Below, one piece after another: positions 2,077 through 64,000 of a stretch of 64,000 bases of DNA (positions are counted from its first letter, which is position 1; every line of letters starts with the position of its first letter). The translations under genes and the position numbers were made by a program. Source of the stretch: Methanothermococcus sp. Ax23. GTDB lineage: Archaea > AGJL01 > Methanococci > Methanococcales > Methanococcaceae. The notes under the pieces were generated by a model. That model saw nothing but the letters and a program-made list of their open reading frames with translations. It did no database searches and was not told the origin of the DNA. The stretch lies in the NCBI RefSeq assembly GCF_049075655.1, contig NZ_CP157522.1:800001-864000 (forward strand), given 5' to 3'.

Positions 2077-3237
2077 TTATTTCTCCCCGCCGCCATGTTT
2101 GCTCTTTCTTGGTCTTATTTTAACAGTTTTTATACATTCTTTTTCATCATCAACAAATACACATTCTCCTTTATTTAAATCTTTAATATATATTTTCAAT
2201 TCCTTCCCCATATATTCTTGATTTAACTTATTTAGTGCATTTACATCTTCCCTATTGGTAACCTTATGTGCAAAAATTATATCGCATTGGCTCAAAACTT
2301 CGTTATCAACCGCTGATGGCTGTTGGGTAGCTATTATCAAATTTAGCCCAGGCTGTCGCCCTTCCTTTGCCCACCTTATCAGTATTTCCTTAGATAATGT
2401 TGATTTTCCAGATGGAATGAAATTATGTGCTTCATCAATGAACATCCAAACTTTTGACATTTTTGACTCTAAATTTAACATTTCCCTTTTTCTTGATTTC
2501 AATCTTTGATTGAATAGATATTTTGAGATTATTGAAACCACTAAATCTCTTAATCCATGTCTTCCGCTTTCTATTGTGCTTAAATCAACGACATTTACGG
2601 CATTTGTGCTAAACACACTTTCTATTTGGATTTCTTCATCTGCAAATATCCCCCATTTCTTTGCCATATTTAATCTATTGATTAACGCTTCCTTTGTAGT
2701 TTCTTTCGATTTTGTGTCCCTTTCTATTTCGTAAATGATGTCATCTATTGTGAAAAACTTTTTTGATATAGAATCCACAGCCCTATATAATGCAATTCCC
2801 ATCATTTCATTTATGTTTATGTTAAACAAATCACACCATCCTTCTGGTGATATGTCTGAAGGATTTAAAAGAAGCTGTTTAAACTCAATTCCTTTATTTT
2901 CCAATTCTTTTACCACTTCACTATCAAACCGTTTTTCCACTTCTCCGGGAACTATCAGTTTAACAGGATATTCCCTTGCATATAGATTCCAATCCCAGAG
3001 CTCTTCCTCTTGCTCAATATTTGGTTCAGCCATAGTCCAAAATATTCCCATTGGGTCAATAATAATTTTCAAAAAATCAGGGTATTTCTCTTGGAGCTCC
3101 TCAACTAACACCCCCATGGTATAACTTTTACCACTACCCCTTTTTCCACAGATAAATATGGCATGAGATTTTGATGCATCAATATATTGGTCATCTTCTA
3201 ACTTTTCTCTAACTTTTTCCCTTCCGATAAAAAGCAT
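2077..3237 (-). CDS. HerA/FtsK-like (DUF87) ATPase
   Basis: ICGKRGSGKSYT Walker A, IIIDPMG, MFIDEAHNF Walker B, KEGRQPG and IATQQPS motifs. Start moved to ATG 3237 behind GAGGGA (track start 3249). Confidence 0.85.
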   Translation of the reverse strand: MLFIGREKVREKLEDDQYIDASKSHAIFICGKRGSGKSYTMGVLVEELQEKYPDFLKIIIDPMGIFWTMAEPNIEQEEELWDWNLYAREYPVKLIVPGEVEKRFDSEVVKELENKGIEFKQLLLNPSDISPEGWCDLFNININEMMGIALYRAVDSISKKFFTIDDIIYEIERDTKSKETTKEALINRLNMAKKWGIFADEEIQIESVFSTNAVNVVDLSTIESGRHGLRDLVVSIISKYLFNQRLKSRKREMLNLESKMSKVWMFIDEAHNFIPSGKSTLSKEILIRWAKEGRQPGLNLIIATQQPSAVDNEVLSQCDIIFAHKVTNREDVNALNKLNQEYMGKELKIYIKDLNKGECVFVDDEKECIKTVKIRPRKSKHGGGEK

Positions 3238-3238
3238 G

Positions 3239-4198
3239 CTATCCCTCAATTATTATTAGTGGAACAAAACACTCTTCGAAGGATATTCCTCCATGAGCTC
3301 CCCTACCATAGTTCTTTTCAAAGTCCCATTTTATTCCATGGTCTGAAATTACATAAACTACAAACGATTCATTAATTTTGCCTAAAAATTCCACTAATTT
3401 TTTTATATTTTCAAAAATTTCATTTATTTTATGATTTATAAGTTCTTTACTTGTAGTTCTTATTTTATGGGCATCTTCATCTAACCCCATCCTATATATT
3501 TGTATATATTTTTTTCTACAAGGGTTATTTTCGATCATATTTTTTAAATCCATCTCATGAATAAAAATGTTATTTTCAGGCATGTATCTAAACAACTCAT
3601 CAGTTGTTTTGTTTTTAGCCCTGTTCCAATATGTTAGTCCATAGATATCATATCCCAAATAATATAGACTTTTGGCTATTGGAATATTATCATATCCAAA
3701 AATTATATTCTTAAAACCATTTATCGTATTTGTTTTACCATTTACAAAAACTGGTGTGATTTTTTTAAACATATTGCCTATATTTAAATTCACAACATCA
3801 ATATAAGATAACCCATCAATGAGATACAAAACCACAGTTTTTGGGGTTTTTGAATTCACATATTCCAAAATATCTGTTTTGACATCTTTCTGTGTTTTCG
3901 CGTATTTTTCGATTAAATGGTATTTTTCTTCAATGATAGTATTTAGTTCAAATGTAAATGGATTGTGATTTAACTCATACATTGGTAATCTATCATCACA
4001 CTGGTCGGTGATCACATAGTTTTTTTGTGGAATTTGGATATGTGGATTATCCATCATATTCCAAAAGTCATCGTATGAAATCTCGTCCAAATCAAAAAAT
4101 AATAAGGAAAGTTTGTGGTTTAATCCCAAATAAACTGGAAACCTTTTTATTTTTTCCTTACAATTATTTCGATATAGTTGTCTAATTTGTTCAGACAT
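3239..4198 (-). CDS. Compact PglZ-like alkaline-phosphatase-superfamily protein
   Basis: YLIDGLSY, DEDAH, VISDHG and HGGISFEECFVP are the PglZ core motifs. Start uncertain. Confidence 0.75.
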   Translation of the reverse strand: MSEQIRQLYRNNCKEKIKRFPVYLGLNHKLSLLFFDLDEISYDDFWNMMDNPHIQIPQKNYVITDQCDDRLPMYELNHNPFTFELNTIIEEKYHLIEKYAKTQKDVKTDILEYVNSKTPKTVVLYLIDGLSYIDVVNLNIGNMFKKITPVFVNGKTNTINGFKNIIFGYDNIPIAKSLYYLGYDIYGLTYWNRAKNKTTDELFRYMPENNIFIHEMDLKNMIENNPCRKKYIQIYRMGLDEDAHKIRTTSKELINHKINEIFENIKKLVEFLGKINESFVVYVISDHGIKWDFEKNYGRGAHGGISFEECFVPLIIIEG

Positions 4199-4268
4199 TT
4201 TATGACCCCCTCTGTATCCATGCCACTTTTCTTTATCAGCTCCCCGAGTGGCATTTCCTTTTCCTTGT

Positions 4269-7200
4269 TCAATATTTCAAGGATTCTTTTTCCTCTTCAG
4301 TAGGTTCAAACACTGAGCTTCTCCGTTTTACATCTTTATCAATTTCTTTAATTTCTCGCCCCAATTCTATTAAATTTTCTTTCATGCCCTTAATATCATC
4401 TAACCCCTCAATTATATCCAACTCAAATAATGTGGATTTTAATCCATCTAGTTTCTCTTCAATTTTATGTAATTTGTTATACAATTCATCCTTTTCGGAT
4501 TCATTTTCAATTTTCATATCAATTTTTGTCTTTATATCAACAATATAGTCTTCATAGGATGAAATAAAGTTTTTCATATCCTCTTTTATGGAATCGTTGA
4601 GGTTCTGGTAAGAAGTGTCTCTGTCCTCAATGCTGAATGCAATATTGTATCTTATGGGCTTACAATTTAAAAGTTCACTATCTCTTATGATGCTGTTCAA
4701 TATCGCTTCAACATCACCTTTTTTAGTGATAAATCCCTCCTTCAGCAATCTTTCCTTATTTTTTATACTGGTGGATATCTGGTTAATTTTTGATTTTATG
4801 AGCTCATCGTTGAATAAATATTTCTCTTTATATTGTGCAAAACCATGCTGTATTTCATATATGAGGTTTTCAAACTTTGAATTTTCTTCTTCAATATCCA
4901 AATGCTCCTTGTATTCGTCAATATTTCTAAATATGTCTTCCATATAACCGATTAGTTCTTTCCATGTTTGCCATTTATTATATTTATTAATAATATTGTC
5001 TTGATTCTTTTTTATATCATTCAGTTTAGTTTTAGCACCCTTTAATCTTTTAGCTAATTCCGCAAAATCTCCACCTGAATATTCTATACTTTCTTTGAGT
5101 TCTTTTGCTTCCCTTATGGAATTTTGACATTCTCTTTTTAGATTTGTTGGTATTCTGTTGATATGGTCAATTATTGATGCGAGAGAACTGCAGGTTATCG
5201 AAGCTTTACCCTCTTCATCTATCTTAGTCTTGATTCTATTCAATTCTGCAATTGTCTTATTTATCCGTTCCAACATGTTTGTTTTGTCATTGTTTAATCG
5301 TTCGGTTATTCTTCTGAACTCTACATTTATGCCTCGTTCCCAATCATTTATTCTGTCCATATATCCATGTAATTTATCTTCATTGTGTTCATTTTTAATT
5401 TCATTTTTTAAGTTAAAGTTTATTGACAAATTTGGAGTCTCCCCATATTCTCTACATATTTTAGCAACATATCCTGCCATATTTACAACTTCTTCAAACT
5501 TGTTCAACACATCCACATTTGATATTTGCCTTTGTTTTATCAAAATGTCATTGTCTTCGTCATATTTGATGTATCCCCTACTTTCGAGAAGTTTAATGAC
5601 ATCTTCAATTTCGTCTATTAAATAACCTTTTCCAAACGCATATTCTTCAATTTCATCCCATTTTACAGAACCGAATGTATCAAATTTATTTTTAAAGGTA
5701 TCCCATATATCCTTTTCAAGCGGATGCATAGTGAGATTGAATTCCACCCTGTCGTCCCTGCCCCAGTATATGATTTTTATTAGATTTTTCCATTTTCCAG
5801 ATTTGCATTCATCATAAAATCCTGAAACACTTGGATTTCTACTTCCAGTCAATTCACCCACAAGTTCTCTTTTTGTGGATTCGATAGGTTCCCCCCTTCT
5901 CTTTGAAATTGGTAGTTTTTTTAAATAACTTCGGTATCTGTCCAAATCCCTGTGGTAATTAACTGAGTGTATTAAAGTATGATAACAAGGGTATTTCATT
6001 ACACAAAGCTTTGTGAATATCTCTTCAACCATTTTTTCATAATTTTTCGACAAATTGTGTTTATTTTTCAATTCATCGCTGAACAAAAATCTCTTCAAAT
6101 ACCTGACAAGCAAACTTTTCAATGATTTAATTTCCCCTTCAAATTTTGTATAGATCTCACTATTTTCTTCTAAATTATCAAGATGTTTCAAAAGACATAG
6201 CATGAACATTGGATTTACATCCTGTGGTTTTACATAATTTTGAAGTATTTTTAAATCCCCCGGAAGTTCATGCTCAGCAACTTTTTTAAGCATGTCAAAC
6301 TTAAACACCACATGTCCAGCATTGTAATCGATTCTCAAATCATCCGTGTTGGAGATATCACCATGGTTACCAACATCAAGCACAAATTCATAGGAGATAT
6401 CACCAGCTTTACCGACCAGTCTTTCTACGAATGATTTGCTTTTTTCATTTAACTCTTTTCTAACAACATAGGTTTCCACAAACCTGTTTGGATATTTCGG
6501 ATTGAATGTCCCTTCCAAAAAAATGAAATGACCATTTGGTATTGGGGTATCATCCTTGTAAGTCCATCCAAATATCTGATTTCCCCGCCTTCTTGGAAAA
6601 ATCTCAGGCATTAGATATTTCAAAAATGCATCGGTCATGTCTCCCTCATACATTTCATTTTCAGCAAAATGAGTCCTAAACTTTATAATCTGCTGAGTTA
6701 TGAAATCATTGCTATCTCCATGTTCCAATCCTTCAAGTGAGTATCCCTCGATGGTGTATTTTATGATTGTTCCATATAATTTCTTTTGGAGCTCCTCAAA
6801 TGCATTCCATAATCCATATGCCTTAATTTTGTCTTCACTAATACCATTTGGAAATGCCCCTAAAAACTTAATAACATTTCGTTTTTCTTCGGAATTAATT
6901 TCATTCAAAGACAGAGCTCGGTTTAACTCTTCAACATATTTTGGTTGGACATACTCCACTTTATTATTCAATACATCATTAACAAAATCCAAAACATCAT
7001 AAGAGTTCATAGTGTCTTTGTAAATTGTGCATGCCCTTTTGAAAGCGTTTATCACAGTTCTTGGACCTCTCCCCAAATGCTCCTTTGAAGATACTTCACC
7101 AATAGACCTCAAGCAGTCTTTTGTTATTATATCATATGGTTCAAATCCAAATTTTTCCCCATATATTTTCCAAAGATTTTCAGCAAAAGTGTTGGTGTAT

Positions 7201-8000
7201 ATATTTATTAAATTCAAATAGAATTCATCCTTTTTCAGCCTATCAATCAAATCCCCTGCCCGTGTAGCCAATTCTTCTTCCTGATAATCCGGAATTATAA
7301 ATAATATCCCTATCCCTTCATTGTAAGTTCCCAATTCAAAAACAAAGTTTCTAAGTTCGTTAATTGTGTTTGTGCTAGTAATACCCTGAACTTCATCAAC
7401 GAATATCGCCAAACCCTCAAAATTTTCTTTTATAATTCCATTTATTTCCTTCAAAAACCGCATCAATATTTTCGGCGTGATACCAATTACTAAATTATCA
7501 CTTAATTCATTGATTATATCCTCAGCTTCATTTCTTGTTAATCGTTTCTTTTGCTGTAAATCCCTGATTACTTTTTCTCTACCTTCTGCTCTGTATTTTA
7601 GGTGGATTTCTTCAATAGTGTTTAAATACTCAGGATATTTGTGTTTAAAAACATATCTTGTCCAGCCATAAACTGCATCCATTATGCTATCAAGCTTCCC
7701 ATCGAATTTAAACGGAGGAACTGCTAATATATTATTTTCCTTACAGAAATTCCATAAACTTAGAGCCTTACTTGTTTTTCCATAGCCATACGGTGCAGAG
7801 ATATATCCTTTTACAGTTTTTCCCTTTTTTATTTCCCTCACAAATCTTTTATCAAAATCAGAACTCCCCACTTGAATATATGTAGAAAGATATTTCTCAT
7901 AGTTTGCATAAATTTCATCTGGTTTTTCCATAAAGTTTTCTGGCGAGTATGTATCTACAACAATACTTTTGTTGATAATATATTCCAAATTACCAATCAT
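4269..8000 (-). CDS. Large P-loop ATPase with long C-terminal coiled coil (BrxC/PglY-like); possibly frameshifted near the 3' end
   Basis: SAPYGYGKT Walker A, IFVDEVQ Walker B, DLIDRL, GPRTVI; ~400 aa heptad-rich C-terminus; directly upstream of pglZ-like gene. ATG 8000 follows GAGGGG. Confidence 0.7.
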   Translation of the reverse strand: MIGNLEYIINKSIVVDTYSPENFMEKPDEIYANYEKYLSTYIQVGSSDFDKRFVREIKKGKTVKGYISAPYGYGKTSKALSLWNFCKENNILAVPPFKFDGKLDSIMDAVYGWTRYVFKHKYPEYLNTIEEIHLKYRAEGREKVIRDLQQKKRLTRNEAEDIINELSDNLVIGITPKILMRFLKEINGIIKENFEGLAIFVDEVQGITSTNTINELRNFVFELGTYNEGIGILFIIPDYQEEELATRAGDLIDRLKKDEFYLNLINIYTNTFAENLWKIYGEKFGFEPYDIITKDCLRSIGEVSSKEHLGRGPRTVINAFKRACTIYKDTMNSYDVLDFVNDVLNNKVEYVQPKYVEELNRALSLNEINSEEKRNVIKFLGAFPNGISEDKIKAYGLWNAFEELQKKLYGTIIKYTIEGYSLEGLEHGDSNDFITQQIIKFRTHFAENEMYEGDMTDAFLKYLMPEIFPRRRGNQIFGWTYKDDTPIPNGHFIFLEGTFNPKYPNRFVETYVVRKELNEKSKSFVERLVGKAGDISYEFVLDVGNHGDISNTDDLRIDYNAGHVVFKFDMLKKVAEHELPGDLKILQNYVKPQDVNPMFMLCLLKHLDNLEENSEIYTKFEGEIKSLKSLLVRYLKRFLFSDELKNKHNLSKNYEKMVEEIFTKLCVMKYPCYHTLIHSVNYHRDLDRYRSYLKKLPISKRRGEPIESTKRELVGELTGSRNPSVSGFYDECKSGKWKNLIKIIYWGRDDRVEFNLTMHPLEKDIWDTFKNKFDTFGSVKWDEIEEYAFGKGYLIDEIEDVIKLLESRGYIKYDEDNDILIKQRQISNVDVLNKFEEVVNMAGYVAKICREYGETPNLSINFNLKNEIKNEHNEDKLHGYMDRINDWERGINVEFRRITERLNNDKTNMLERINKTIAELNRIKTKIDEEGKASITCSSLASIIDHINRIPTNLKRECQNSIREAKELKESIEYSGGDFAELAKRLKGAKTKLNDIKKNQDNIINKYNKWQTWKELIGYMEDIFRNIDEYKEHLDIEEENSKFENLIYEIQHGFAQYKEKYLFNDELIKSKINQISTSIKNKERLLKEGFITKKGDVEAILNSIIRDSELLNCKPIRYNIAFSIEDRDTSYQNLNDSIKEDMKNFISSYEDYIVDIKTKIDMKIENESEKDELYNKLHKIEEKLDGLKSTLFELDIIEGLDDIKGMKENLIELGREIKEIDKDVKRRSSVFEPTEEEKESLKY

Positions 8001-8499
8001 AAACAACCCCTCTGAAAATTTTCCACAAATTATTGTTCGAATAATTTTTATTGATGTTTATATTTAGACTTTTCAAATTATCAAGCACTTTGACAATATC
8101 ACTATTATCGAGTGTTAATTTTACAGAATATGGGACTGACTTTATTTTAGTGATATATATCACTTTTTCACTTTTTGTCGTGGTTAATCGTCTAATATCT
8201 TTTATGTTAGTTAGCCTCCCATTATCTATAACTGCATAAGGCACATTTTTCGAATATTCTTTATATTTTTTTTCATTTTCAAAATACTTAAAACCATCCA
8301 TTACAAAAATCCATCCTAAAAATGTTTTTCCAACACCTCCATCCCCATATAATCCTACAACATCATCATATAGTAAATATTCATTTACCCTATCGTATGC
8401 CTCTTTTTGACTGTCAGTCATCCAATCTTTATTGTAATTATTCTTTATATAATTGATTATTTCAAGGTAATTTACCATAATTTCCCAATTATTTTTCAT
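7990..8499 (-). CDS. Small P-loop protein (BrxB position)
   Basis: GLYGDGGVGKT Walker A, YAVIDN Walker-B-like; its stop overlaps the start of the large ATPase. Alternative start 8478. Confidence 0.6.
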   Translation of the reverse strand: MKNNWEIMVNYLEIINYIKNNYNKDWMTDSQKEAYDRVNEYLLYDDVVGLYGDGGVGKTFLGWIFVMDGFKYFENEKKYKEYSKNVPYAVIDNGRLTNIKDIRRLTTTKSEKVIYITKIKSVPYSVKLTLDNSDIVKVLDNLKSLNININKNYSNNNLWKIFRGVVYDW

Positions 8500-8511
8500 T
8501 GTTGTTATAAT

Positions 8512-9384
8512 TCAGTAAACACTTACAACTACACTACCAGCACCTTTGCTTTTTTGCCCACCTAATATTTTTATATTTTGTATTGCAGGAATTAATACTT
8601 CTTCAATTAAAAATTTCGCTCTTTTATCTTTATCGCCTTCTCTCCATTTTTCGAGCCATTTGTCAATTACAACATTGTTAATTTTTCTTGCATCTCCAAA
8701 TTGAATACTCTGCATTTCAAGGATTGGAGTTGATATTATAATTTCAATGTTTCCTTTAAATATAGAACCAGGTCCAACATGCTCCCCTTCAACTTTTGCC
8801 CCCTTAGCAGCAGTTCCTGTTTTTCTATCAATTCTTATGTTTGTTTGGTCTATCACGCCACCTTCATTTTCCATACAGAAATTTCCAATTCTTAAAAATC
8901 CCATAATTCCCGTAGCTCCCATAAAATAACATACTGGACATATCCCTAAATTTCCAGCATATATTTTATCTTCTTCAACTTTAACTTCACAATGTCCAAT
9001 ATATTTTTTCCCATCCATTTTTCCCCTATATGCCCATAATAATTCTTGTTCTGCTTTTGTTGGATTTGGGGTGGGTATGCAAGGTTTCAATAATTTATTC
9101 TCAATATTAAATATTTTAGCAAATTCATCAATTTTTTCAATAAACAATAGTTCTAATTCATGTCTTAGAGCTCCTTTAAAACTACTTGCAGGTATTGCAG
9201 GTCTTCCATTTATTTTAAACACAGGTGTTTTCTTTTCATTTAGTGGTGAAGGAGATGCTCCTATATGTAAAAAACTATCTTCACAAACCGTTATTGTTAT
9301 TGGAATCTCCAATACTTTAACTCTCCCCAAAGTTTTTTCATTAAGATTGATTTTATTTTCTCCAATATTTATTTCCATACTCAT
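8512..9384 (-). CDS. cas7: Cas7-group RAMP (Csm3-like)
   Basis: LHIGA, PAIPASSFKGALR, CPVCYFMG, IRIDRKTGTA and G-rich loop LGGQKSKGAG. Confidence 0.9.
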   Translation of the reverse strand: MSMEINIGENKINLNEKTLGRVKVLEIPITITVCEDSFLHIGASPSPLNEKKTPVFKINGRPAIPASSFKGALRHELELLFIEKIDEFAKIFNIENKLLKPCIPTPNPTKAEQELLWAYRGKMDGKKYIGHCEVKVEEDKIYAGNLGICPVCYFMGATGIMGFLRIGNFCMENEGGVIDQTNIRIDRKTGTAAKGAKVEGEHVGPGSIFKGNIEIIISTPILEMQSIQFGDARKINNVVIDKWLEKWREGDKDKRAKFLIEEVLIPAIQNIKILGGQKSKGAGSVVVSVY

Positions 9385-9968
9385 CTTATTACCTCCCAGT
9401 ATTTTTCTAATGAATTAAGTTTTCTAACAATGAAGGCTATTTTTTCTCTTGGAACACCTGCATCATATAATTCCATAGTATAATTAAGAACTTTTGTTAA
9501 TGCACGGTTTTTTGGGAATGGGGATTTTTCTATCTTATTCGTGAAGTATTCTATAACAATTGATTTTTCATATCTTTCAATAACCTTTCCGTAGTCATTC
9601 ATATTTGGTAATTTGCATTCCACAAGCCCATACCATTCAAGAGTTTCAAATAGTTGTTTTAAGAGATGTTGTTTGTTTTTGTATGAGTTTTTTAACCAGT
9701 TTGCTCGTTCTTCTGTTAATTCTTTAATTTTTGACTTCCTCCATCCTTTGGAATATTTATCTTTATGTTTTATTTGACTAATTCTATCATCAATCATATT
9801 TTCAAATTCATCTTTTTTTCCTTTTTCATATAATTCTTTAAGTTTTTTCCAGTCATCTCTCTCAAAGAGTTTTGGAATGGTATCTTTTTTATGACTATCG
9901 TAAGGACTATCGAATATATCTATATCATTTAAAACTTTTTTAAAAATCCCATCCATTTTACTCGTCAT
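9381..9968 (-). CDS. Putative small subunit (Cas11/Csm2-like), alpha-helical
   Basis: 195 aa, helical and charged; lies between the cas5-like and cas7-like genes and overlaps both. Call is by position only. Confidence 0.55.
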   Translation of the reverse strand: MTSKMDGIFKKVLNDIDIFDSPYDSHKKDTIPKLFERDDWKKLKELYEKGKKDEFENMIDDRISQIKHKDKYSKGWRKSKIKELTEERANWLKNSYKNKQHLLKQLFETLEWYGLVECKLPNMNDYGKVIERYEKSIVIEYFTNKIEKSPFPKNRALTKVLNYTMELYDAGVPREKIAFIVRKLNSLEKYWEVIR

Positions 9969-23610: not shown

Positions 23611-23799
23611 TATATCACCTTTTTGTGTGATAATATAATATTTGGAACAGTTATTATATATAAATAACTTTATGATATAATTTATTTAATAGTATTATAA
23701 ATATAATTTTTATAATAATAAGAATTATGGACCCCCAAAAAGTTATTTAAATGATATTTATCAGAAATAATTTATTAATTAATAATTGTGAGGGAAATA

Positions 23800-25026
23800 A
23801 TGGATGCAGTTATATTATGTGCGGGAAAAGGAACAAGATTAATGCCTTTAACTGAAAACAGACCAAAACCAATGATTCCAATAGCAGGGAAGCCGATTTT
23901 GGAGCATATAATTGGTAAAATTGAGGATTTTGTAGATAATATATATTTGATTGTAAAGTATAAAAAGGAAATAATAATAAACCACTTCAAAAATCACCCG
24001 AAAATAACCTTTATAGAACAGAAAGAAATTGATGGAACAGGATATGCTGTTTTAATGGCAAAGAACCATATAAATGATGATTTTTTAGTAATAAACGGCG
24101 ATGTTATTTTTGACGACGATTTAAAAGATATTATGCATTATAAAAATGCAATGGCATTAACTGAGGTAGATAATCCTGAAAATTTTGGGGTGGTAGTTTT
24201 AGATGATGAAGATAATATAATAGAATTACAGGAAAAGCCGAAAAATCCAAAATCCAACCTTATAAATGCAGGCATATATAAATTTGAAAAAAATATATTT
24301 GAGATATTGGAAAATTTAAAACCATCGGAGAGGGGGGAGGTAGAGCTCACCGATGCTATAAAGGAGCTCATCCAAAATGGAAATATAAAGGGTATAAAAT
24401 TAAATGGATATTGGAACGATATTGGAAGACCTTGGGACTTGCTCGATGCAAATAAACATCTTTTAAAAGATATTAAAACTAATATAAGGGGAAAAATTGG
24501 AAAAAATGTTGTAATTGAGGGAAATGTAATAATAGAAGAAGGAGCAGAGATAAAACATAACACTGTAATTGAAGGACCCGCAATAATTAAATCTGGTGCA
24601 ATTGTTGGACCATTGGCATACATTCGACCAAATACCGTTTTGATGGAAAATACAGGAGTTGGAAACTCATCAGAGGTAAAAGGAAGCATTATAATGAAAA
24701 ATACAAAGGTTCCTCATCTTTCCTATGTAGGGGACAGTATCATTGGAGAAAACTGCAATATCGCCTGCAATACCATTACGGCAAATTTAAGATTTGATGA
24801 TAAGCCTGTTAAAGTAAGTATAAAAGGAAAAATTGTTAAAAGTGTTAGAAAACTTGGAGTAATAATGGGGGATAATGTAAAAACAGGAGTTCAAGTTTCG
24901 TTCATGCCAGGAGTTAAAATTGGGAGCTCCTGCTGGATTGGGGCAAACTGTTTAATTGATAGAGATGTGGAATCAGATAGTTTTGTTTATAAAAAGGAGG
25001 AGATAATAAAAACCAAAAGAGAATAA
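23800..25026 (+). CDS. glmU: Bifunctional sugar-1-phosphate nucleotidyltransferase/acetyltransferase
   Basis: ILCAGKGTRLMPLT, ERGEVELTD and hexapeptide repeats; ATG 23800 after GAGGG. Confidence 0.88.
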   Translation: MDAVILCAGKGTRLMPLTENRPKPMIPIAGKPILEHIIGKIEDFVDNIYLIVKYKKEIIINHFKNHPKITFIEQKEIDGTGYAVLMAKNHINDDFLVINGDVIFDDDLKDIMHYKNAMALTEVDNPENFGVVVLDDEDNIIELQEKPKNPKSNLINAGIYKFEKNIFEILENLKPSERGEVELTDAIKELIQNGNIKGIKLNGYWNDIGRPWDLLDANKHLLKDIKTNIRGKIGKNVVIEGNVIIEEGAEIKHNTVIEGPAIIKSGAIVGPLAYIRPNTVLMENTGVGNSSEVKGSIIMKNTKVPHLSYVGDSIIGENCNIACNTITANLRFDDKPVKVSIKGKIVKSVRKLGVIMGDNVKTGVQVSFMPGVKIGSSCWIGANCLIDRDVESDSFVYKKEEIIKTKRE

Positions 25027-40697: not shown

Positions 40698-41798
40698 TTA
40701 AGGTTTCAAATAAAACAAATGGCTTTTACATTTACAGTCGGAGCTCCCAAAACCTTCAACAAAATCAAACATTTTCATCAAATCCCTTGATATATTACAC
40801 TCAACAGGGTTATTTGATATGTAAATCTCCTTTATAGGCCCGTGTTTTAATAAATAATCAATATGCCAGTGCATTTTTTTATCATCTCTTAAATGTCGCC
40901 CTATTCTTCTTTTTAAATTATTGGAGCTCCCCATTGCAGAGCCAACATAAAAATAATATCCTTTTTTAAATCGTTCTATTCTGTTTTTTCCAAAGGTTAT
41001 ATTTTTTGAATTATTTAATTTTATTTTTAAAATATAGGTTCCTTTTTCCTCTGGAATTTTATTTTTTGAAACCTTCTTAAAATTATACTGCTCTAAAATC
41101 TCGCTAAAATATCTTAATTTTTCATAATATGGACAGGTTTCTTTAATTTCATTAAAACATTTATCACATTTTGGAATTGGGGAGCAAACTTCCCTTCCAT
41201 AAACCACCAATAGATTATTTATAATTTTCCAATATTTTTTTGGAAGTTTTTTTCTCAGTTCCATTTCCGTTTCATCAGGATTTTCAGTATTTACATACTC
41301 CCATCTGTTGCAAATCCTATGAACATGGGTATCTACGCATATCCCATAATCATCAAATGCGAGAGTAATTACTAAATTTGCTGTTTTTCTCCCAACGCCA
41401 GGAAGTTTTATTAAATCTTCCAATTTGTTGGGTATTTTTCCACCATATTCATTTTTTACAATCTTTGCTAAATCTTTTAAATATTTTGCCTTAGTTTTGT
41501 AAAATCCAACTGGATAAATAATTTTTTCTAATTCATTTTGGTCTATATTTAGTAAATCATTTATGTTTTTTATTTTTTTAAATAATCTCTCTGAAACCTC
41601 TGATGTAGTTTCGTCCTTTGTTCTTGCACTTAAAACAGTAGATATAAGAACTTTAAATGCCTTAGTTTCTGCATCTTCAACCTGCTTTGATATTTCTTCA
41701 ACCACAGGGTTTTTGTTTAATTTTTTATATAATATATCTAAAAATCTCTGGAAATTTGAGATATCGTCCCTATTTTCAATATTGTAACTATTATTCAT
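40698..41798 (-). CDS. nth: Endonuclease III (HhH-GPD, 4Fe-4S) fused to a DUF123/GIY-YIG-like domain
   Basis: [25 protein letters not shown]; then GTYIL, YFYVGSA, HWHIDYL, GFGSSDC. Confidence 0.88.
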
Positions 41799-45928: not shown

Positions 45929-47053
45929 TTATTTTTTATTTTTATTATATTCACAAATCCATTCAACAACATCAACAACTTTTGCGTCAGTTTTAATGCC
46001 GTTTGGATTGTAATGAGTTCTTGATACTTTAAATCCGTTCTGTTTTAACCCATCCATTAAGTCATTTATTGGTGGCACGAGCTCTTTTATAAAACTACAA
46101 ATTTCATGAATATCGTAGCACCCGATTTGATTTATTTGGCATTCCTCGGATATGGTTTTTATAATCTTTCTACTCCTCTCTGAGTAGTTTCTATCATCTG
46201 CAACTTTTAATGCACCATTTACAATATTTAAATCGTTTATCTTATCTAAATAAAACAATCCTCCAAATCCTTTTTCAAATCCTTCTTCACGGATCTTTAT
46301 AATCTTTTCTTCATTAACATTTTTTATATATCCCAACTTCTTGACTGCCTCATCCGCTTTTTTTGCCCCTCTCTCAGTAATTAAGAATGTTCTGGCATAA
46401 TGGTCTGTAATATGCGAGAATATGGGTCTAAGCCCTACATCGTATTTAGATGCTACCCTTATGGCGTATCCGATTAATAACCTTATAGCTACTTCCTTAT
46501 CGCCTTTAAGTGGAATGGCGTCGTAATTTCTAATGCATGCCTTTTTATATGCTCCGCACAAAACCGCCGTATCTGTGGCAGTCATGCATAAAATCCCGTT
46601 TTTTGTAATGCAACTTCGCACCGCACTATCGATATATGGATTGGGGGAACCGAAGGGGTCTAAATCCACTACATTGAATGTTCTGAAATTCTCTGAAAGA
46701 AGAACATTGGCATCCTTATGTATGATTTCCACATTATCCAGTTCATTTACTTTTAGGTTTTCCTTTGCCAGTTTTACAGCATTGGGATTTATATCTCCAA
46801 TTACTACTTTTACAGTTCCAGAAGGGTTTTTTAACTCCTTGGCATATCTTAATCCTCTTGCACCGCTTCCACCTAGTGGGTCACATATTATAAATTCATC
46901 CCTTTTGTAATTGTTTAAGAAACTCTGAATTACTGAAACAGAGATGTCCCTGTTAATTTCCATTATTGGATTGTAAAATATTTTATCCTTTTTTGACAGT
47001 GTCCTATCCTTTGGAACTTTTAATTTTGTGTTTCCCTCGGTAATGATTTTCAT
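45929..47053 (-). CDS. trm1: tRNA G26 N2,N2-dimethyltransferase
   Basis: FYNPIMEINRD, GSGARGLRY, DLDPFGSP, TATD. Confidence 0.95.
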   Translation of the reverse strand: MKIITEGNTKLKVPKDRTLSKKDKIFYNPIMEINRDISVSVIQSFLNNYKRDEFIICDPLGGSGARGLRYAKELKNPSGTVKVVIGDINPNAVKLAKENLKVNELDNVEIIHKDANVLLSENFRTFNVVDLDPFGSPNPYIDSAVRSCITKNGILCMTATDTAVLCGAYKKACIRNYDAIPLKGDKEVAIRLLIGYAIRVASKYDVGLRPIFSHITDHYARTFLITERGAKKADEAVKKLGYIKNVNEEKIIKIREEGFEKGFGGLFYLDKINDLNIVNGALKVADDRNYSERSRKIIKTISEECQINQIGCYDIHEICSFIKELVPPINDLMDGLKQNGFKVSRTHYNPNGIKTDAKVVDVVEWICEYNKNKK

Positions 47054-47181
47054 GAGCTCACCAATATATTTCCTTTAAATATAGTATATATTAAATATAA
47101 GTTTATGAAATGATATTTGGTAATTTAAATTAAATAAATAATATTGTTATTTTTATATATAATCATCTTATTGGTGAAAAT

Positions 47182-51714: not shown

Positions 51715-51939
51715 ATGAAAAAATTCAACATGGAAGATGTGGATGAAATAGATGAAATAGATAAACTGGCAATAAACATATTAATAAATGCCCCTCTAAT
51801 GTCAGAACATGAGATGAAATATGCAATAAACAGGCTAAAAAGGATAGCAAAGAAAAAAAAGAACAATGAACGAAAAAAAGTAAATGATATATTGGATTAT
51901 TGGGCTAACAAAGCTTATGCTATTTCAATGAAATCCTAA
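51715..51939 (+). CDS. Small hypothetical protein
   Basis: 74-aa ORF with GAGGT RBS in an otherwise empty gap. Confidence 0.65.
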   Translation: MKKFNMEDVDEIDEIDKLAINILINAPLMSEHEMKYAINRLKRIAKKKKNNERKKVNDILDYWANKAYAISMKS

Positions 51940-52089
51940 TTATTTTTAAATCCTACTATTTTTATTTTTTTATAGTTGGACATAATATATGATATTATCG
52001 GAGCTCCGCAGTATTCGAAATTTACTTTTTATAGATGATTATTTAAATATGGCATTTCAATATTTTTAAAAAATACTAACTGTGATTGT

Positions 52090-53649
52090 ATGATATTAGG
52101 AATCCACGACGGACATAATGCAAGTGCCTGTTTGATAGATGGTAATAGCATAAAATATGCCATAAGCGAAGAAAGATTTACAAGAAAGAAAAATCAAAGA
52201 GGATTTCCAAACTATTCTGTAAATTATATTTTAAATGAGATAAATGATACAATAGACTTAATAACCGTAGGAGGCATGTTTAGAAAAGGAAATAGATTAA
52301 AAGCATTAAAAAGTTTTCAAAAAGAAATAAATGTTCCTATGGTTTATTTTAACCATCACCTATGCCATGCTTCATTATATAAATTATCGGATTTCAAGGA
52401 GTGTTTGGTAATTACAATAGATGGTGGGGGCGATTCCCTTTCTTCAACAGTATCAATAGGAAATAAAAAAGGTTTGGAAGTTATTGCTCAAAGTGATTTA
52501 ATAGATTCTGTTGGTGATTTCTATGCATCTATTACGGAGGTTTTAGGATTCAAACCTATGGAAGATGAAGGAAAAGTAATGAGTTTGTCCAGTTATGACT
52601 GTGCAGATGAATCCCATATCGATTTAAAAGTTATTGATTATGATAGTAAAAGGAAATCCTTTGAGAATTATCTTGGTGTTGTTGGGTATGAAGCTACAAA
52701 GGCATTAAAAAGGATTTTTGATTTAAAAGATAAAAATATAGACTTTAAAAACAAAGTGTTAATTTCAAAATATGCTCAAAGAACTCTTGAAGATGTTGTT
52801 TTAAAAATGATAAAAGATTTTTCAGAAGAAACTGGTATAAATGATATAGTTTTTAGTGGTGGAGTAGCACAGAATGTGCGATTAAATAAAAAAATAGCGG
52901 AAAATTATAATTTATATGTTCCACCATTTATGGGGGATGAAGGGCTTTCTGTTGGTTCTGCATTGCTTTTTAATGATAAAAAGAACAAAAAAACCAAAAA
53001 TAAAGATATAACCTTAAAAGATACATATTTAGGATATGAAATTAAAAATGAGAATGTAGAGCTCCTACTCAATAGCAACGATAATATTTGCAAAAATTAT
53101 AAAATTACATATTTGGAAGAGGATGAGCTCCCTGAAATTATTGGAAATTTAGTAGTAAATAGTAAAATTGTCTGCATTTGTAGAGATAAAATGGAATTTG
53201 GACCTAGGGCATTGGGAAATAGAAGTATAATATCACTACCTAAACGGGAAAATGCAAAAAAGATTAATAGAATGTTAAAACGGGATGAATTTATGCCTTT
53301 TGCACCGACAATGCTTTATGAGCATATTGATGATTATTTAATTAATCCCATATACAGCCCGTTTATGACTATGCTGTTTGATGTGAAATCTGAAAATAAG
53401 GATAAAATAGATGGTGTTGTTCATGTGGATAATACTACCCGAGCTCAGACATTAAAGAGAGAATTTAATAAAACCTATTACGATATAATAAATTATGTTT
53501 ATGAAAATATGGATATTCCCGCAGTTTTAAATACAAGTTTCAATTTACACGGCGAGCCAATTGTTTGCAATGAACAGGATGCTTTAAAATCCTTTAAGTC
53601 GGTTGGTGATGCCTTATTATTGGGAAATTGGTTAATTGAGAAGATTTAA
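52090..53649 (+). CDS. Carbamoyltransferase, NodU/CmcH family
   Basis: GIHDGHNAS, EERFTR, HHLCHA, EGKVM, EFGPRALGNRS, LNTSFNLHGEP. Confidence 0.9.
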   Translation: MILGIHDGHNASACLIDGNSIKYAISEERFTRKKNQRGFPNYSVNYILNEINDTIDLITVGGMFRKGNRLKALKSFQKEINVPMVYFNHHLCHASLYKLSDFKECLVITIDGGGDSLSSTVSIGNKKGLEVIAQSDLIDSVGDFYASITEVLGFKPMEDEGKVMSLSSYDCADESHIDLKVIDYDSKRKSFENYLGVVGYEATKALKRIFDLKDKNIDFKNKVLISKYAQRTLEDVVLKMIKDFSEETGINDIVFSGGVAQNVRLNKKIAENYNLYVPPFMGDEGLSVGSALLFNDKKNKKTKNKDITLKDTYLGYEIKNENVELLLNSNDNICKNYKITYLEEDELPEIIGNLVVNSKIVCICRDKMEFGPRALGNRSIISLPKRENAKKINRMLKRDEFMPFAPTMLYEHIDDYLINPIYSPFMTMLFDVKSENKDKIDGVVHVDNTTRAQTLKREFNKTYYDIINYVYENMDIPAVLNTSFNLHGEPIVCNEQDALKSFKSVGDALLLGNWLIEKI

Positions 53650-56140: not shown

Positions 56141-56246
56141 TTTATCACTATGGTTATTTTTTATATTTTTAATAACATTGGGTATTAATGTAATATATAG
56201 ATTGTTTTATATAGATTGTTTTTAGTTTAGATTTTCGGGTGAGCTC

Positions 56247-57431
56247 ATGAACACAATATATATAAAATCAAATTTTTTATATGGGAGTGAATTTGAATAT
56301 AAAAAAGGTATTTTAGTAATCGAAGATGGGATAATAAAAGGATTCACAAAGGAAGATGTTAAAAACTATATAAAATACGATGGGATAATAATACCGCCCC
56401 TTATAAATGCTCACACCCATATCGGGGATAATATCATAAAAGACATGGGAATAAACAAAACTCTTGACGAGCTCGTGAAACCACCAAATGGATTGAAACA
56501 TAAATTTTTAAATACCTGTGATGATAAAGATTTAATACATGGGATGTTGGATGGATTGCATGAGCTCCGTAATAATGGAATAAAATATTTCTGTGATTTC
56601 AGGGAAAACGGATTAAGGGGCATAAATCTTTTTAAAGAATCTTATGAATTGTTTAAAAAATCATTTGAACCCAATGAACCTAATAATCTTAACAATGATA
56701 GTATTGACCCAATAAAACCCATAATATTGGGAAGACCCACAAAATCCAACAATGAAGAATTAAAAAAGGAAATAATAAATATTTTAAAAAATTCCGATGG
56801 AATAGGATTGAGCGGATGTAATGAATATACTGACAAGGATTTAAAATTTATTAGAAGTCAGGATTATAAGATTTTTTCAATACATGCAAATGAGCATAAA
56901 GGTTCCGTTGATTACTCAAAGAAAACCTATGGAAAAACCGAAATAGAAAGGATAATTGATTTAAAGCTCAATCCAAACTTTATAATACATGCAACCCATG
57001 CAACATCTCATGAAGCGGAGCTCCTATATGAATACAGCATACCTGTTGTAGTCTGTCCAAGGGCAAACGCATCATTTAATGTGGGATTACCCGATATAAC
57101 TAAACTTTTAAAAAATAATGTGCTTGTTGGGCTTGGAACAGACAATTTCATGGCGAACTCCCCATCTTTGTTTAAGGAAATGGATTTTATCTATAAATTA
57201 TACCACATCGACCCAAAAGAGATATTGAAGTTTGCCACAATAAACAATGGTAAAATTTTGGGGCTCAAAGATGTTGGATTGATTGATGAAGGCTATAAAG
57301 CCACATTTACATTTATTAAAAAATCACCTTCAATAAAATACTCCAAGAATATCGTAGCATCAATTATAACACGATGTGAAAAAGGAGATATTGATACCAA
57401 TTTCAGTGAAAAATTGCTAAAACTCATATAA
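56247..57431 (+). CDS. Amidohydrolase-family protein
   Basis: NAHTHIGD, IHANE, CPRAN, GLGTDN. Confidence 0.88.
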   Translation: MNTIYIKSNFLYGSEFEYKKGILVIEDGIIKGFTKEDVKNYIKYDGIIIPPLINAHTHIGDNIIKDMGINKTLDELVKPPNGLKHKFLNTCDDKDLIHGMLDGLHELRNNGIKYFCDFRENGLRGINLFKESYELFKKSFEPNEPNNLNNDSIDPIKPIILGRPTKSNNEELKKEIINILKNSDGIGLSGCNEYTDKDLKFIRSQDYKIFSIHANEHKGSVDYSKKTYGKTEIERIIDLKLNPNFIIHATHATSHEAELLYEYSIPVVVCPRANASFNVGLPDITKLLKNNVLVGLGTDNFMANSPSLFKEMDFIYKLYHIDPKEILKFATINNGKILGLKDVGLIDEGYKATFTFIKKSPSIKYSKNIVASIITRCEKGDIDTNFSEKLLKLI

Positions 57432-60255: not shown

Positions 60256-60316
60256 AACCACTCATTATGTTAAAATGTTGGAAATTATTTTCAACAGAAA
60301 ATTTGCGGTTGATTAT

Positions 60317-60874: not shown

Positions 60875-60916
60875 GTAATATGAATAATTTTTTTAAAAAA
60901 ATAAGGAGGAGAAATC

Positions 60917-61603: not shown

Positions 61604-61628
61604 ATAATAAAATCCTAGGGGTGATTAA

Positions 61629-62477
61629 ATGGATGCTTTTGGAAAATATAAAACAGTAATATCTGCAAGAGCAGCAGATAAAAAAATATTGAAAAAATCC
61701 CAAGATGGAGGGATTGTATCTGCTGCATTTATCTATGGATTGGAGAACAACCTTTTAGATGGTGTAATAGTAGCAGATAAAGAAGATGAGTTTAAGGCAG
61801 TTCCTAAGGTTGCCACAACACCAGAAGAGGTTTTAAACGCTGCAGGAACAAAATATACCGTATGTTCAAATCTAAGTGTTTTGAAAAATGCTATCAGAGA
61901 ATACGGCTGTGAAAAACTTGGAGTTGTAGGAACTCCTTGTCAGGTAATAGCTACAAGAAAAGCCATAAAATATCCAGTAGGATTTAGACACATGCCTGAT
62001 AAAATTGCATTGATTGTGGGAATCTTCTGTATGGAAAACTTCCCATACAATGGTATGAAAACCATAGTTGAAGAACACTGCGGTGTGAAAATAGAAGATG
62101 TTGCTAAATTGGACATTGGAAAAGGTAAATTCTGGGTATATACGAAATGGGGAGAAACAAAATCCATCAAGTTAAAAGAAACCCATCCTTATGAACAAAT
62201 AGCATGTCATGTATGCACCGACTATACAGCAGAATTGGCTGATATTTCAACAGGTTCAGTAGGTAGCCCTGATGGTTGGAGCTCTGTATTTGTAAGGACT
62301 GCAAAAGGAGAAGAATTTATTAACAAAATGATTGATGAAGGATATTTAGAAACCAAACCAATAGATGAAGGTAAATTTGGTTTAGGAATACTTGAAAAAC
62401 TTGCATTACTTAAAAAAGATAAAAACGCAAAAGAAATCGAGCATAGGAAGGAAATAGGATTACCTGTTCCTTATTAA
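61629..62477 (+). CDS. fruB: F420-reducing hydrogenase beta subunit
   Basis: [31 protein letters not shown]. Confidence 0.92.
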
Positions 62478-62539
62478 TTAATATGTTAGTTTCTATTTTT
62501 TAAAACTGCCCTAAAAAAATAAGAAAATAAGAAATGGTT

Positions 62540-62992
62540 TTATTCTTCTTTTTCTTTTTCCATCATTTTTACAAGGAGCACCGGACAGTGAGCTCCTTTG
62601 CTAACTTTTTCAGCAACACTACCCAATAATAATTTATCAAGACCAGTTTTTCCAGTAGTCCCCATCACTATTAAATCTACCTTTTTTCTTTCGGCATAAT
62701 CTACAATCTCTTTTGCAGGACTGCCTTCAAGAATTTCGGATTTTATATCAACCCCCATTTCTTTTGCTTTATCTTCTATTTTTTTAAGGGCTTCTTTACC
62801 TTCTTCCTCTAAAATCTCCTTCATACTTTCCCATAATCCTTCTGTTGGAAGTCCAATAAATGGAACAATATCCACAACATATACGGCATATACTCTGGAA
62901 TTCATAGCCTTTGCTATTTCAAGAGCATGCTTTGCAGCTTCCATTGATACTTCTGAACTATCCGTTGGTATTAAGATTTTTTTATATATCAT
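62540..62992 (-). CDS. Universal stress protein
   Basis: ILIPTDSS, DLIVMGTTG, LLGSVAEKV, CPVLLV. Confidence 0.92.
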   Translation of the reverse strand: MIYKKILIPTDSSEVSMEAAKHALEIAKAMNSRVYAVYVVDIVPFIGLPTEGLWESMKEILEEEGKEALKKIEDKAKEMGVDIKSEILEGSPAKEIVDYAERKKVDLIVMGTTGKTGLDKLLLGSVAEKVSKGAHCPVLLVKMMEKEKEE

Positions 62993-63084
62993 AATCACAC
63001 CCGTTATTTTTGATTAATATAAATATTATTTTGGATAATGAGGTATATATTATTTATTAATTTATTATTTATTAGTCTTTAATT

Positions 63085-64000
63085 CTATTTCATTTTTTTT
63101 CTCTTAATCATTTTGAATTTTTTCCCGCCGCATTCACAGGTTAAATTTTCTATTCTAACGGTTTTACCATCAATTTCATAAGTTTTACCACAATTTAGGC
63201 ATTTATAATACCTAATTGTTGGTTTTACCTCACCAGTGTATAACTTGCCTAAATCGATTTCGCCCTCTTCAAATTTTTTTAAGTTTTTCCCAATCAATCT
63301 GGCCAAAAATGTGGTATTTCCTATTATCTCAGAACCTTCATATGTGTTAAATCCTGGTATGAGCTCATATATAACAAACCCCATGCTGTTGATAATTCTT
63401 TGGAGCTCCAAATATTCATCTATCGGCTTGTGAGAAAATGCGAGGTATAATGCACCCCCTCCACCTTCTCCCAATCCTTCAACACCACGGGATAGGAACA
63501 ATTTTAATCCTTCCAAGGTATATGGAGGGTCTGTAAAAATTGTATCAAATGCTCCCATATATTCGTTTTTTATCGAGTTTCTAAAATCATGTTTAACTGT
63601 TTTGATGTTTAAATCTTCCTTTTCTGAGATTTCATCTATCAAATTTAATAACCTATCGTCTATATCCATAACAACAACTTCATCGCATAAACCACTCATT
63701 GCCGTAGGTATGGATGTTAAGTCGTCATCTCCAACAAACAAAATCTTTTTTCCTTCTAAATCGCCCCTATCTGCCATAAACGCTGCTCGGTATGTGGCAG
63801 TTTCAGGGGTGGCAAAGGACTGGTCTATTGATGTATTTACAGTAGGTCTCATTTTTGCATACTTTTTATGCTTTTTAAGTATGTCTTCAAAGTATTCATT
63901 GAGAATTATGCCTTTCCCATTGCATATGGGGCATTTTAAATCATGATTTAATTTAAGTTTTAAATTTTTTTCAATGAGGTTTAGCCCCTCCTCTGAATAT
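63085..64000 (-). CDS. DUF43/BpsA-family aminopropyltransferase-like protein; 5' end beyond the window
   Basis: DQ, VGDDDLTS, DIDDR, TDPPYT. The frame stays open from 63852 to the edge (..KCPICNGKG..). Confidence 0.75.
   Translation of the reverse strand, partial: YSEEGLNLIEKNLKLKLNHDLKCPICNGKGIILNEYFEDILKKHKKYAKMRPTVNTSIDQSFATPETATYRAAFMADRGDLEGKKILFVGDDDLTSIPTAMSGLCDEVVVMDIDDRLLNLIDEISEKEDLNIKTVKHDFRNSIKNEYMGAFDTIFTDPPYTLEGLKLFLSRGVEGLGEGGGGALYLAFSHKPIDEYLELQRIINSMGFVIYELIPGFNTYEGSEIIGNTTFLARLIGKNLKKFEEGEIDLGKLYTGEVKPTIRYYKCLNCGKTYEIDGKTVRIENLTCECGGKKFKMIKRKKMK

Follow-up and report, generated by a model that had tools for sequence, protein, structure and literature searches.

GAGCTC as a highly iterated palindrome in the archaeon Methanothermococcus sp. 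Ax23

GAGCTC sites in the window and across the genome

The stretch of DNA analyzed here (the window) comprises 64,000 bases of the chromosome of the heat-loving methanogen Methanothermococcus sp. Ax23 (contig C1, 800001–864000), along which the palindromic hexamer GAGCTC recurs. An exact pattern count gave 77 copies, from 2998–3003 to 63403–63408 in window coordinates, the same number that the original prediction had reached as an approximate hand count. The sites start at 2998, 3094, 3295, 4800, 6789, 6914, 9168, 16163, 16271, 17017, 17383, 19129, 19550, 19848, 20469, 20730, 21232, 21717, 23068, 23272, 24343, 24364, 24924, 25328, 27456, 28503, 30026, 30098, 30577, 30877, 30940, 31066, 32663, 33199, 33313, 35548, 36287, 36634, 37593, 37832, 37853, 39623, 40186, 40645, 40741, 40924, 44194, 44955, 45013, 45620, 46079, 47054, 47299, 47359, 47687, 49432, 50104, 50310, 52001, 53059, 53125, 53441, 56027, 56241, 56469, 56562, 57018, 57921, 58178, 59264, 59607, 59850, 60537, 62279, 62590, 63361 and 63403. 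Dinucleotide-preserving shuffles of the window gave an expectation of 3.88 copies (s.d. 1.77, maximum 9), close to the four to five per 64 kb estimated beforehand, and none of the 100 shuffles reached 77.

The sites occur in several reading frames and outside genes, as originally described: 43 are read GAG|CTC, 21 xGA GCT Cxx and 10 xxG AGC TCx, and three are non-coding. Two of the non-coding sites overlap ribosome-binding sites. One (47054..47059, minus strand) abuts the start codon of the gene at 45929–47053 (GGT GAGCTC ATG), and the other (56241..56246, plus strand) abuts the ATG of the gene at 56247–57431 (GGGT GAGCTC ATG). The third (52001..52006) lies between the genes at 51715–51939 and 52090–53649.

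Across the Ax23 genome (1,662,948 + 7,732 bases, 31.9% G+C; G000 in a set of 40 Methanococcales genomes labeled G0xx), GAGCTC was found 2,089 times, with 2,085 copies on the chromosome and four, compared to 0.35 expected, on the 7.7-kb second contig, a small plasmid. This corresponds to 1.25 per kb, or about one copy per 0.8 kb. The genome-wide Markov comparison suggested with the original prediction placed GAGCTC as the most over-represented hexamer at all orders from 0 to 4, with observed/expected ratios of 16.7, 19.7, 13.1, 4.9 and 1.60, respectively, and an order-4 z of 30.7 versus 13.7 for the runner-up. Its 18 one-mismatch variants have 3–239 copies each on the given strand. Positions flanking the sites carry at most 0.21 bit each, with a slight preference for GGAGCTCC. 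What is kept abundant is the hexamer GAGCTC as such rather than a codon pair or some longer word.

Such an excess could in principle be produced by codon usage, by frequent Glu-Leu dipeptides or by over-represented shorter words. The GAG|CTC frame does account for 56% of the coding sites of the genome, and the order-4 ratio is only 1.6, since the 5-mers GAGCT and AGCTC are themselves inflated. Against this, the 1,649 long open reading frames (ORFs) called on Ax23 (87% of the chromosome) hold 1,961 sites, compared to 191 ± 12 (maximum 212) in 30 synonymous shuffles in which codons were permuted within each gene, keeping the proteins and the per-gene codon usage. The overall excess is tenfold, and all three frames are enriched by 7.5–13x: GAG-CTC, xGA GCT Cxx and xxG AGC TCx were counted 1,106, 630 and 225 times, versus 83, 84 and 24 after shuffling. 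Although GAG (25%) and CTC (6.7%) are both minor codons, GAG precedes 38% of all CTC occurrences, and 1,106 of the 3,985 Glu-Leu dipeptides (28%) are written GAG-CTC, 16.4x the 67.6 (1.7%) expected. In strict intergenic DNA (outside ORFs, tRNA and rRNA; 208 kb, 23.4% G+C), 121 copies were found versus 5.7 expected, a 21-fold enrichment. In the relative G032, moreover, GAGCTC stands at none of the 347 conserved Glu-Leu positions where Ax23 has a site. The excess therefore survives both the codon shuffle and the sub-word Markov models under which it might have vanished, codon usage is insufficient to explain it, as had been proposed, and the artefact explanation, which retains essentially no probability, is already refuted.

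In the alignments with Ax23, the dipeptide facing Glu-Leu is itself Glu-Leu equally often for site (64.5%) and non-site (63.1%) positions, so that most sites have arisen through synonymous changes where the dipeptide was already present. At conserved [Gly/Arg]-Ala-[LPHQR] positions, where the frame is xGA GCT Cxx, 70% are sites in Ax23 and 55% in G037. Over 215,756 aligned columns shared by Ax23, G037 and G032, Glu-Leu was counted 1,833, 1,823 and 1,536 times and Ser-Ser 693, 694 and 567 times, respectively, while Asp-Leu, Glu-Ile and Lys-Leu were nearly equal. The drive thus marks proteins as well, with Glu-Leu and Ser-Ser raised by about 20% in orthologs, a figure that rests on G032 as the single comparison genome.

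Placement along the chromosome is close to random. Gaps between sites are near exponential (coefficient of variation (CV) 1.09; median 532 versus 552 expected), per-gene counts are Poisson-like (chi2/df 0.94), with the first tenth of genes somewhat site-poor, and no periodicity was detected between 5 and 200 kb, the periodogram maximum being matched by 21% of 500 random placements (p=0.21). The suggestion that the word organizes the chromosome therefore found no support. Taken together, GAGCTC is almost certainly a motif acting at the level of DNA, resembling the highly iterated palindromes (HIPs) of cyanobacteria. In the open-access literature (supplements aside), we found no report of hyperabundant GAGCTC and none pairing the word with Methanothermococcus. 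Articles mentioning both GAGCTC and jannaschii appear from their titles to concern cloning or primer uses, and neither archaea nor GAGCTC nor Methano appears in the available excerpt of Elhai 2015.

Patchy distribution and rapid turnover

GAGCTC was counted in all 40 genomes, of which G037 in full and 72% of G032 were compared with Ax23 in depth. The comparison across Methanococcales that had been called for revealed hyperabundance in five genomes and a bimodal distribution: the carriers hold 1,321–2,089 copies and the other 35 hold 4–229. Four carriers share one genus label (Ax23, 2,089; G027, 2,070; G026, 1,645; G033, 1,321), and the fifth, G037 (1,515), bears another; in G037, GAGCTC is also the top hexamer, at 10.8x. 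At the other extreme, GAGCTC reaches only 0.07x in G032, where every NAGCTN word is depleted, and sister genomes in the G030–G035 series deplete AGCT words, with 4–43 copies of GAGCTC. AAGCTT, counted as a proxy for AGCT, has 12–33 copies in G030, G031, G032, G034 and G035 versus 253–450 in the five carriers. One genus thus shows three states, AGCT-avoiding, neutral and GAGCTC-hyperabundant. The depletion of AGCT in those five genomes suggests an AluI-type, AGCT-specific restriction system in their lineages.

In a tree of one conserved window gene, G026 groups with Ax23, G033 and G027 (support 92/89), the GAGCTC-rich G037 pairs with the GAGCTC-normal G039 (90/91) and G034 pairs with G032 (100/98), so that the trait needs two changes of state on this tree.

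Between Ax23 and G037, whose proteins have a median identity of 76%, 414 of 1,671 aligned Ax23 sites are also GAGCTC in G037. At conserved Glu-Leu, G037 carries the site at 32% of the positions that are sites in Ax23 and at 13% of those that are not; the resulting odds ratio, 3.1, is within what ordinary synonymous Glu-Leu hexamers show (2.4–4.9). The constituent codons are more conserved inside sites than elsewhere (GAG, 0.41 versus 0.28; GCT, 0.67 versus 0.43; all four p<0.004), in a comparison where both genomes carry the trait and parallel gain can mimic conservation.

Substitutions were polarized, as had been proposed, using closer relatives, with about 22 kb of the window aligned to each of G027 (85.7% identity) and G033 (89.2%). 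Turnover proved fast. G027 keeps 27 of 37 Ax23 sites (0.43 for all hexamers) and G033 keeps 21 of 34 (0.57 for all hexamers). The three-way alignment spans 18.4 kb and, as a small sample, 41 site positions, of which 18 are common to all and 23 are variable; in the order Ax23, G033, G027, the presence patterns are 101 (five), 100 (six), 011 (three), 001 (six), 110 (two) and 010 (one). Site 56241, for example, is kept in G033 and reads GAACTC in G027. The two Glu-Leu sites at 24343 and 24364 (24343..24369, plus strand; gene 23788–25026), for which codons of eight orthologs were aligned, are common to G033 and G027, read GAATTA/GAACTA in the GAGCTC-rich G026, and are represented by GAACTT/GAATTA/GAACTC in the GAGCTC-poor G034, G039 and G032. 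At degenerate third positions with a conserved amino acid, six of 58 changed inside sites versus 25.8% elsewhere in the comparison with G027 (p=0.006), and 11 of 56 versus 17.8% in that with G033 (not significant).

By parsimony, Ax23 has six private sites versus three losses. Two of the six face different one-mismatch words in G033 and G027 and may be double losses. Four need at least two changes within the hexamer, one being 40924..40929 (GAATTT in G033, GAATTC in G027) and the others, from the same alignment, 25328, 47687 and 56027. On the private branch of Ax23 (4.0% change), neutral gains of only 0.48 from one-mismatch and 0.07 from two-mismatch precursors are expected. With four multi-step gains against 0.07 expected and loss little slowed, creation has been sped up far more than loss has been slowed. 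Flanks of the private sites (±30 bases) carry about 1.5x the usual private changes (21/360 versus 4.0%; 46/360 versus 8.3%), which fits imported tracts and is suggestive but not decisive.

Seven one-mismatch neighbor classes, taken without those containing the avoided GATC and GCGC, are depleted 14–34x when compared with the site count and a composition-only equilibrium, to a similar extent whichever of the three half-site positions is altered and whether the change is a transition or a transversion. Such uniform depletion is what a preference for the whole six-base word leaves behind, and not the trace of repair aimed at a single kind of mismatch. With turnover this quick, the high number of sites represents a dynamic equilibrium: new sites form at a strongly increased rate, and existing ones are lost only slightly more slowly, if at all.

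A different account would have the driver gone in some or all carriers, leaving the sites as a slowly decaying relic. G033 fits this picture, as a net loser (five losses versus one gain) without third-position protection and with the lowest density of its group (0.94 per kb), and the fact that no determinant was found would also be explained. Ax23 does not fit it, with more private sites than losses and four multi-step gains; its count is nearly equal to that of G027 despite 14% DNA divergence and about a third of sites differing, and its plasmid is enriched too. A relic is accordingly very improbable.

Mobile and accessory DNA of Ax23 differs from the remaining genome, the equilibrium being confined to resident DNA. 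Intragenomic repeats (96 kb) contain 14 GAGCTC versus 120 at the genome average, and the insertion sequence (IS)-like families with at least three copies (55 kb, copies up to 14% diverged) contain none, copy-specific sites included. One-mismatch neighbors in these families stand at 0.40x the composition expectation, compared to 0.79 in the remaining chromosome. IS-like repeats therefore lack GAGCTC enrichment; we do not claim avoidance, the copies being non-independent. Genes without a G037 homolog are less enriched than core genes (10.8x versus 16.8x). The clustered regularly interspaced short palindromic repeat (CRISPR) arrays, with one site in 5.3 kb, are too small a sample to interpret.

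Candidate agents and competing explanations

We favor the reading that GAGCTC is a true highly iterated palindrome of the chromosome and the small plasmid, an archaeal counterpart of the cyanobacterial HIP1, whose count is kept up by a fixation bias linked to DNA exchange; for this statement as a whole, we estimate a probability of roughly 0.38. Most sites come from synonymous point changes where Glu-Leu, [Gly/Arg]-Ala-X or Ser-Ser is already encoded, and spacers gain them to the same degree; the bias would act on resident, homologously recombining DNA. A putative protein, probably a homodimer because the site is palindromic, would read the hexamer as a whole while DNA is exchanged, taken up or repaired by recombination, so that GAGCTC alleles would spread over alleles lacking the site, as uptake sequences do in Neisseria and Haemophilus and as proposed for HIP1. 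Gain and loss of the determinant between lineages would leave the patchy distribution. This type of mechanism is ranked first on account of the preference for the complete site from every direction, the IS copies left unreached, the neighboring changes that may be co-imported and the lack of recognizable methylation or repair machinery. The exchange or recombination step itself is offered tentatively and with low confidence. Behind it we place direct selection, then methylation-coupled or other intracellular conversion and finally the decaying relic. The asymmetry between gain and loss, measured on small samples, is more readily reconciled with directed conversion, or with tracts imported together with their sites, than with plain symmetric selection.

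Directed conversion was the mechanism first put forward, in the form of methylation-coupled repair, which is also Elhai's model for HIPs: an orphan methyltransferase would mark GAGCTC or AGCT, and methyl-dependent mismatch or very-short-patch (VSP) repair would create or restore the site. Acceleration of creation far beyond any slowing of loss does resemble directed conversion more than selection, cyanobacterial HIPs are reported together with a methyltransferase specific for the abundant palindrome (Elhai 2015, available excerpt) and the order harbors unrecognized methyltransferase families, M.MaeIII having been missed by annotation according to the accessible text of PMC10113651. A motif-IV screen combined with Pfam yielded six DNA methyltransferase candidates in Ax23, so that the 300-aa beta-class S-P-P-Y enzyme L019, the only small Type II-like one, is accompanied by several others.

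The gene content of the carriers nevertheless gives this mechanism no support. In Ax23, neither C5 methyltransferase (PF00145) nor Vsr (PF03852) matched while positive controls did, the Vsr search covering Ax23 only; the SacI endonuclease family PF09566 gave no match in Ax23 either, though no control genome matched. L019 was rejected as the cognate enzyme, its orthologs being absent from G026, G027 and G037 and found, besides Ax23, only in G033 and seven GAGCTC-normal genomes. The Type IIG enzyme L011 was likewise rejected; it is absent from G026 and G033, has a 78% ortholog in G037 and is represented on the G027 plasmid by its N-terminal half only. A census of PF00145, PF01555 and PF02384 in the other four carriers revealed no member of these methyltransferase families common to all five. 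Among those four, a true C5 enzyme occurs in G037 only, G026 has a single strong candidate (PF01555) that is missing in Ax23, G027 and G037, and the G027 set is limited to two HsdM genes plus a Type IIG enzyme encoded on its plasmid. None of the five carriers has MutS or NucS/EndoMS, which were found solely in non-carriers (MutS in seven of 40 genomes, NucS in nine of 40 over the cut-off). The search for a cognate methyltransferase or Vsr-like gene that had been advised thus yielded no methyltransferase shared by the carriers and, in Ax23, no Vsr. The neighbor classes are depleted alike, unlike a single-mismatch VSP footprint, and lack an end-position bias of the HIP1 kind, and IS copies diverged by up to 14% have gained no site. 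Methylation-coupled repair is therefore improbable, ranking below selection.

Beside these candidates, the L019 ortholog of G033 (C37:1957-2847, 92% identical) has a TAA inside the match, in the carrier that is seemingly losing GAGCTC. The two may coincide by chance, as G027 lacks the gene and has kept its sites. The adjacent paralogs L008 and L009 (C1:107879-110394 in Ax23; 341 and 497 aa) have S-P-P-Y at residue 65 and no Pfam family, with homologs in G032 (47–57% identity) and none in G037.

Direct selection on the sites or on their density, through binding of an abundant nucleoid protein or as a Chi-like signal for recombinational repair that would be bidirectional as a palindrome, would account for the pull from all neighbor classes, as expected if the complete site is favored. 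It would also account for the 2.5x lower rate of third-position change inside sites relative to G027 (p=0.006) and for mobile DNA without the motif. Chi and uptake sequences are likewise known to be lacking in mobile DNA. Higher conservation of constituent codons inside sites, a criterion from which selection on HIP1 has been argued (available text of PMC5861425), holds here too, with the reservation that both compared genomes carry the trait and may have gained sites in parallel. Set against these points are the absence of periodicity, clustering and even spacing (p=0.21; CV 1.09; chi2/df 0.94), a Glu-Leu retention no greater than that of ordinary hexamers (odds ratio 3.1 within 2.4–4.9) and the lack of third-position protection relative to G033. 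Multi-step gains, at about 60x the neutral expectation, exceed what the implied strength of selection predicts, and close relatives do well with 4–229 sites, some of them avoiding AGCT. We regard direct selection as unlikely, if somewhat less so than methylation-coupled repair.

Several observations weigh against the exchange-linked bias as well. To sustain the equilibrium seen here (about 19–27x), a symmetric fixation bias should slow loss roughly sixfold, whereas loss is slowed about 2.5-fold relative to G027 and not at all relative to G033, in small samples. Positional conservation between Ax23 and G037 is S=0.248, compared to 0.219 for all hexamers and 0.08–0.39 for control palindromes. 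An approximately unbiased test fails to reject a single origin of the trait (p=0.105), on the tree of one gene. To our knowledge, uptake sequences are 9–12 bases long and not palindromic, which makes a 6-base palindrome unusual, and we found no published demonstration of natural transformation in Methanothermococcus. The lack of sites in IS copies could reflect recent arrival or a history in AGCT-restricting hosts. Gene screens of the carriers identified no GAGCTC-binding protein, and no tested gene tracks the trait, the TctA-like and OB-fold genes being present whatever the GAGCTC count. In the GAGCTC-rich G027, the TctA-like gene is split (C1:516935-518076; frames of 149 and 305 aa).

These two genes bear on the feasibility of an exchange mechanism. 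The available text of PMC10133366 describes archaeal uptake machinery as only beginning to be defined and the TctA-like and OB-fold genes as essential for transformation in M. maripaludis; here, predicted members were found in 35 of 40 genomes, including all five carriers. ComEC (0/40 genomes) and DprA (1/40) were uninformative, competent archaea being without ComEC (PMC10133366, same excerpt). The OB-fold neighbor of the TctA-like gene was considered as a discriminator, with 16–22% identity in G032, and rejected, since G032 has the true ortholog at a different place and the family occurs throughout the order. A screen for genes present in Ax23 and G037 and missing from G032 returned 540 candidates and was too loose, 72% of G032 being covered. 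Its synteny-filtered version left 19 genes, including an AlkD-like glycosylase, TnpB copies and a nucleotidyltransferase, none of them a sequence-specific DNA enzyme. A bolder version of the exchange-linked reading, in which GAGCTC would be the first archaeal DNA uptake or kin-recognition signal, read by a homodimeric receptor, spreading by molecular drive through Methanothermococcus chromosomes and plasmids and forming a barrier against AGCT-restricting sister species, is speculative and rather doubtful.

Comparison with known systems and further features

HIP1 (GCGATCGC) is described in the accessible text of PMC5861425 as 15–300x over-represented in cyanobacteria, conserved and periodic (10–90 kb), and this text and the excerpt of Elhai 2015 tie it to the methylases DmtA and DmtC. 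It is now proposed as an uptake sequence whose enhancement of transformation depends on methylation and which co-varies with pilus and competence genes (PMC13756078, available text). GAGCTC resembles it as a GC-rich palindrome beyond Markov and codon expectation (17x at order 0, 10x under the codon shuffle), occurring about once per gene, in spacers as well as in every frame, written by point substitutions and patchy among relatives, some of which show different states. Constituent codons are more conserved inside sites in both systems (PMC5861425, same text). GAGCTC differs as a hexamer in Archaea, HIP1 being an octamer, and in lacking the 10–90 kb periodicity, an end-position bias in one-mismatch deviations and raw motif conservation above that of control palindromes (S=0.248 versus 0.08–0.39); on conservation as a whole, the picture is mixed. 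Its carriers share no orthologous DNA methyltransferase, whereas HIPs are reported with a specific one (Elhai 2015, available excerpt).

The DNA uptake sequence (DUS) of Neisseria and the uptake signal sequence (USS) of Pasteurellaceae offer a second parallel. At about 1,500–2,000 copies per genome of less than 2 Mb, or about one per kb, they sit within coding sequence in every frame; a transmission bias lets them build up through point changes, and mobile or newly acquired DNA contains few of them. Known uptake sequences depend on a defined receptor and ComEC. GAGCTC matches them in density (1.25 per kb) and in its under-representation in repeats (14 versus 120) and accessory genes (10.8x versus 16.8x). 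It differs as a 6-base palindrome in an order where ComEC was found in 0/40 genomes. The original suggestion of an uptake motif may hold and fits several of its features.

In Escherichia coli, VSP repair by Dcm and Vsr produces an excess of CCWGG and a deficit of CTWGG. There too, a short palindrome is raised at the cost of a near-cognate word, but by well under 2x compared to about 17x for GAGCTC, and from one T:G context whereas all neighbor classes feed GAGCTC; Vsr and a C5 methyltransferase are, moreover, absent from Ax23. Restriction-site avoidance concerns the same word class (palindromes of 4–6 bases) in the same clade with the opposite sign, GAGCTC being enriched. Ax23 itself avoids many palindromes, namely every GTNNAC and CTNNAG hexamer, CTCGAG and words with GATC, GTAC, CTAG or GCGC, with CTGCAG and GTGCAC each at 0.05 of the order-4 expectation. 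This avoidance points to heavy past or present restriction pressure; that of CTNNAG was matched to none of the identified enzymes.

For three decades, hyperabundant palindromes have posed a puzzle in cyanobacteria, where a connection to transformation was made only recently. An independent archaeal case provides a second system for separating the competing ideas, with a shorter word, a contrast of on, off and avoided states among close relatives, fast turnover and apparently neither a cognate methyltransferase nor known mismatch repair. With 28% of Glu-Leu codon pairs rewritten and Glu-Leu and Ser-Ser counts in orthologs up by about 20%, the drive visibly shapes both codon usage and protein sequence. 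For genetic tools in these methanogens, a SacI site every 0.8 kb or so matters for cloning and restriction barriers.

Within the window, 1..15856 (minus strand) forms a site-poor island with seven sites, at 0.44 per kb compared to 1.45 per kb in the remaining window, and most of its genes have no homolog in G037 or in the examined 72% of G032. Its minus-strand genes encode a predicted PHP-domain protein (1–2027), a HerA-like ATPase (2077–3249) and a RAMP-superfamily protein (8512–9384), along with several large proteins without a Pfam family, such as that at 4269–8006 (1,245 aa). From these assignments, the segment looks like a defense or CRISPR type III-like island. The segment 61091..62487 belongs to a repeat with two copies, the other being at chromosome 1258231–1259626 (92% identity); the family has two sites in 2.8 kb. 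The chromosome carries at least nine IS-like or short repeat families, among which are nine copies of a 1.5-kb IS605/TnpB-type element, 24 copies of a 381-bp unit (41% G+C) and five near-identical 1.17-kb copies.

Additional loci stood out in Ax23 and G037. An MNT-type nucleotidyltransferase of 101 aa (C1:190804-191109 in Ax23; 177055–177357 in G037) is 99% identical between the two genomes, compared to the genome median of 76%, and adjoins a Type I restriction-modification locus in both, making recent horizontal transfer likely. A 1,882-aa topoisomerase gene in Ax23 (L015; C1:1177356-1183004) contains intein splicing and LAGLIDADG domains, and G037 has a type IV-pilus-like ATPase with an intein.

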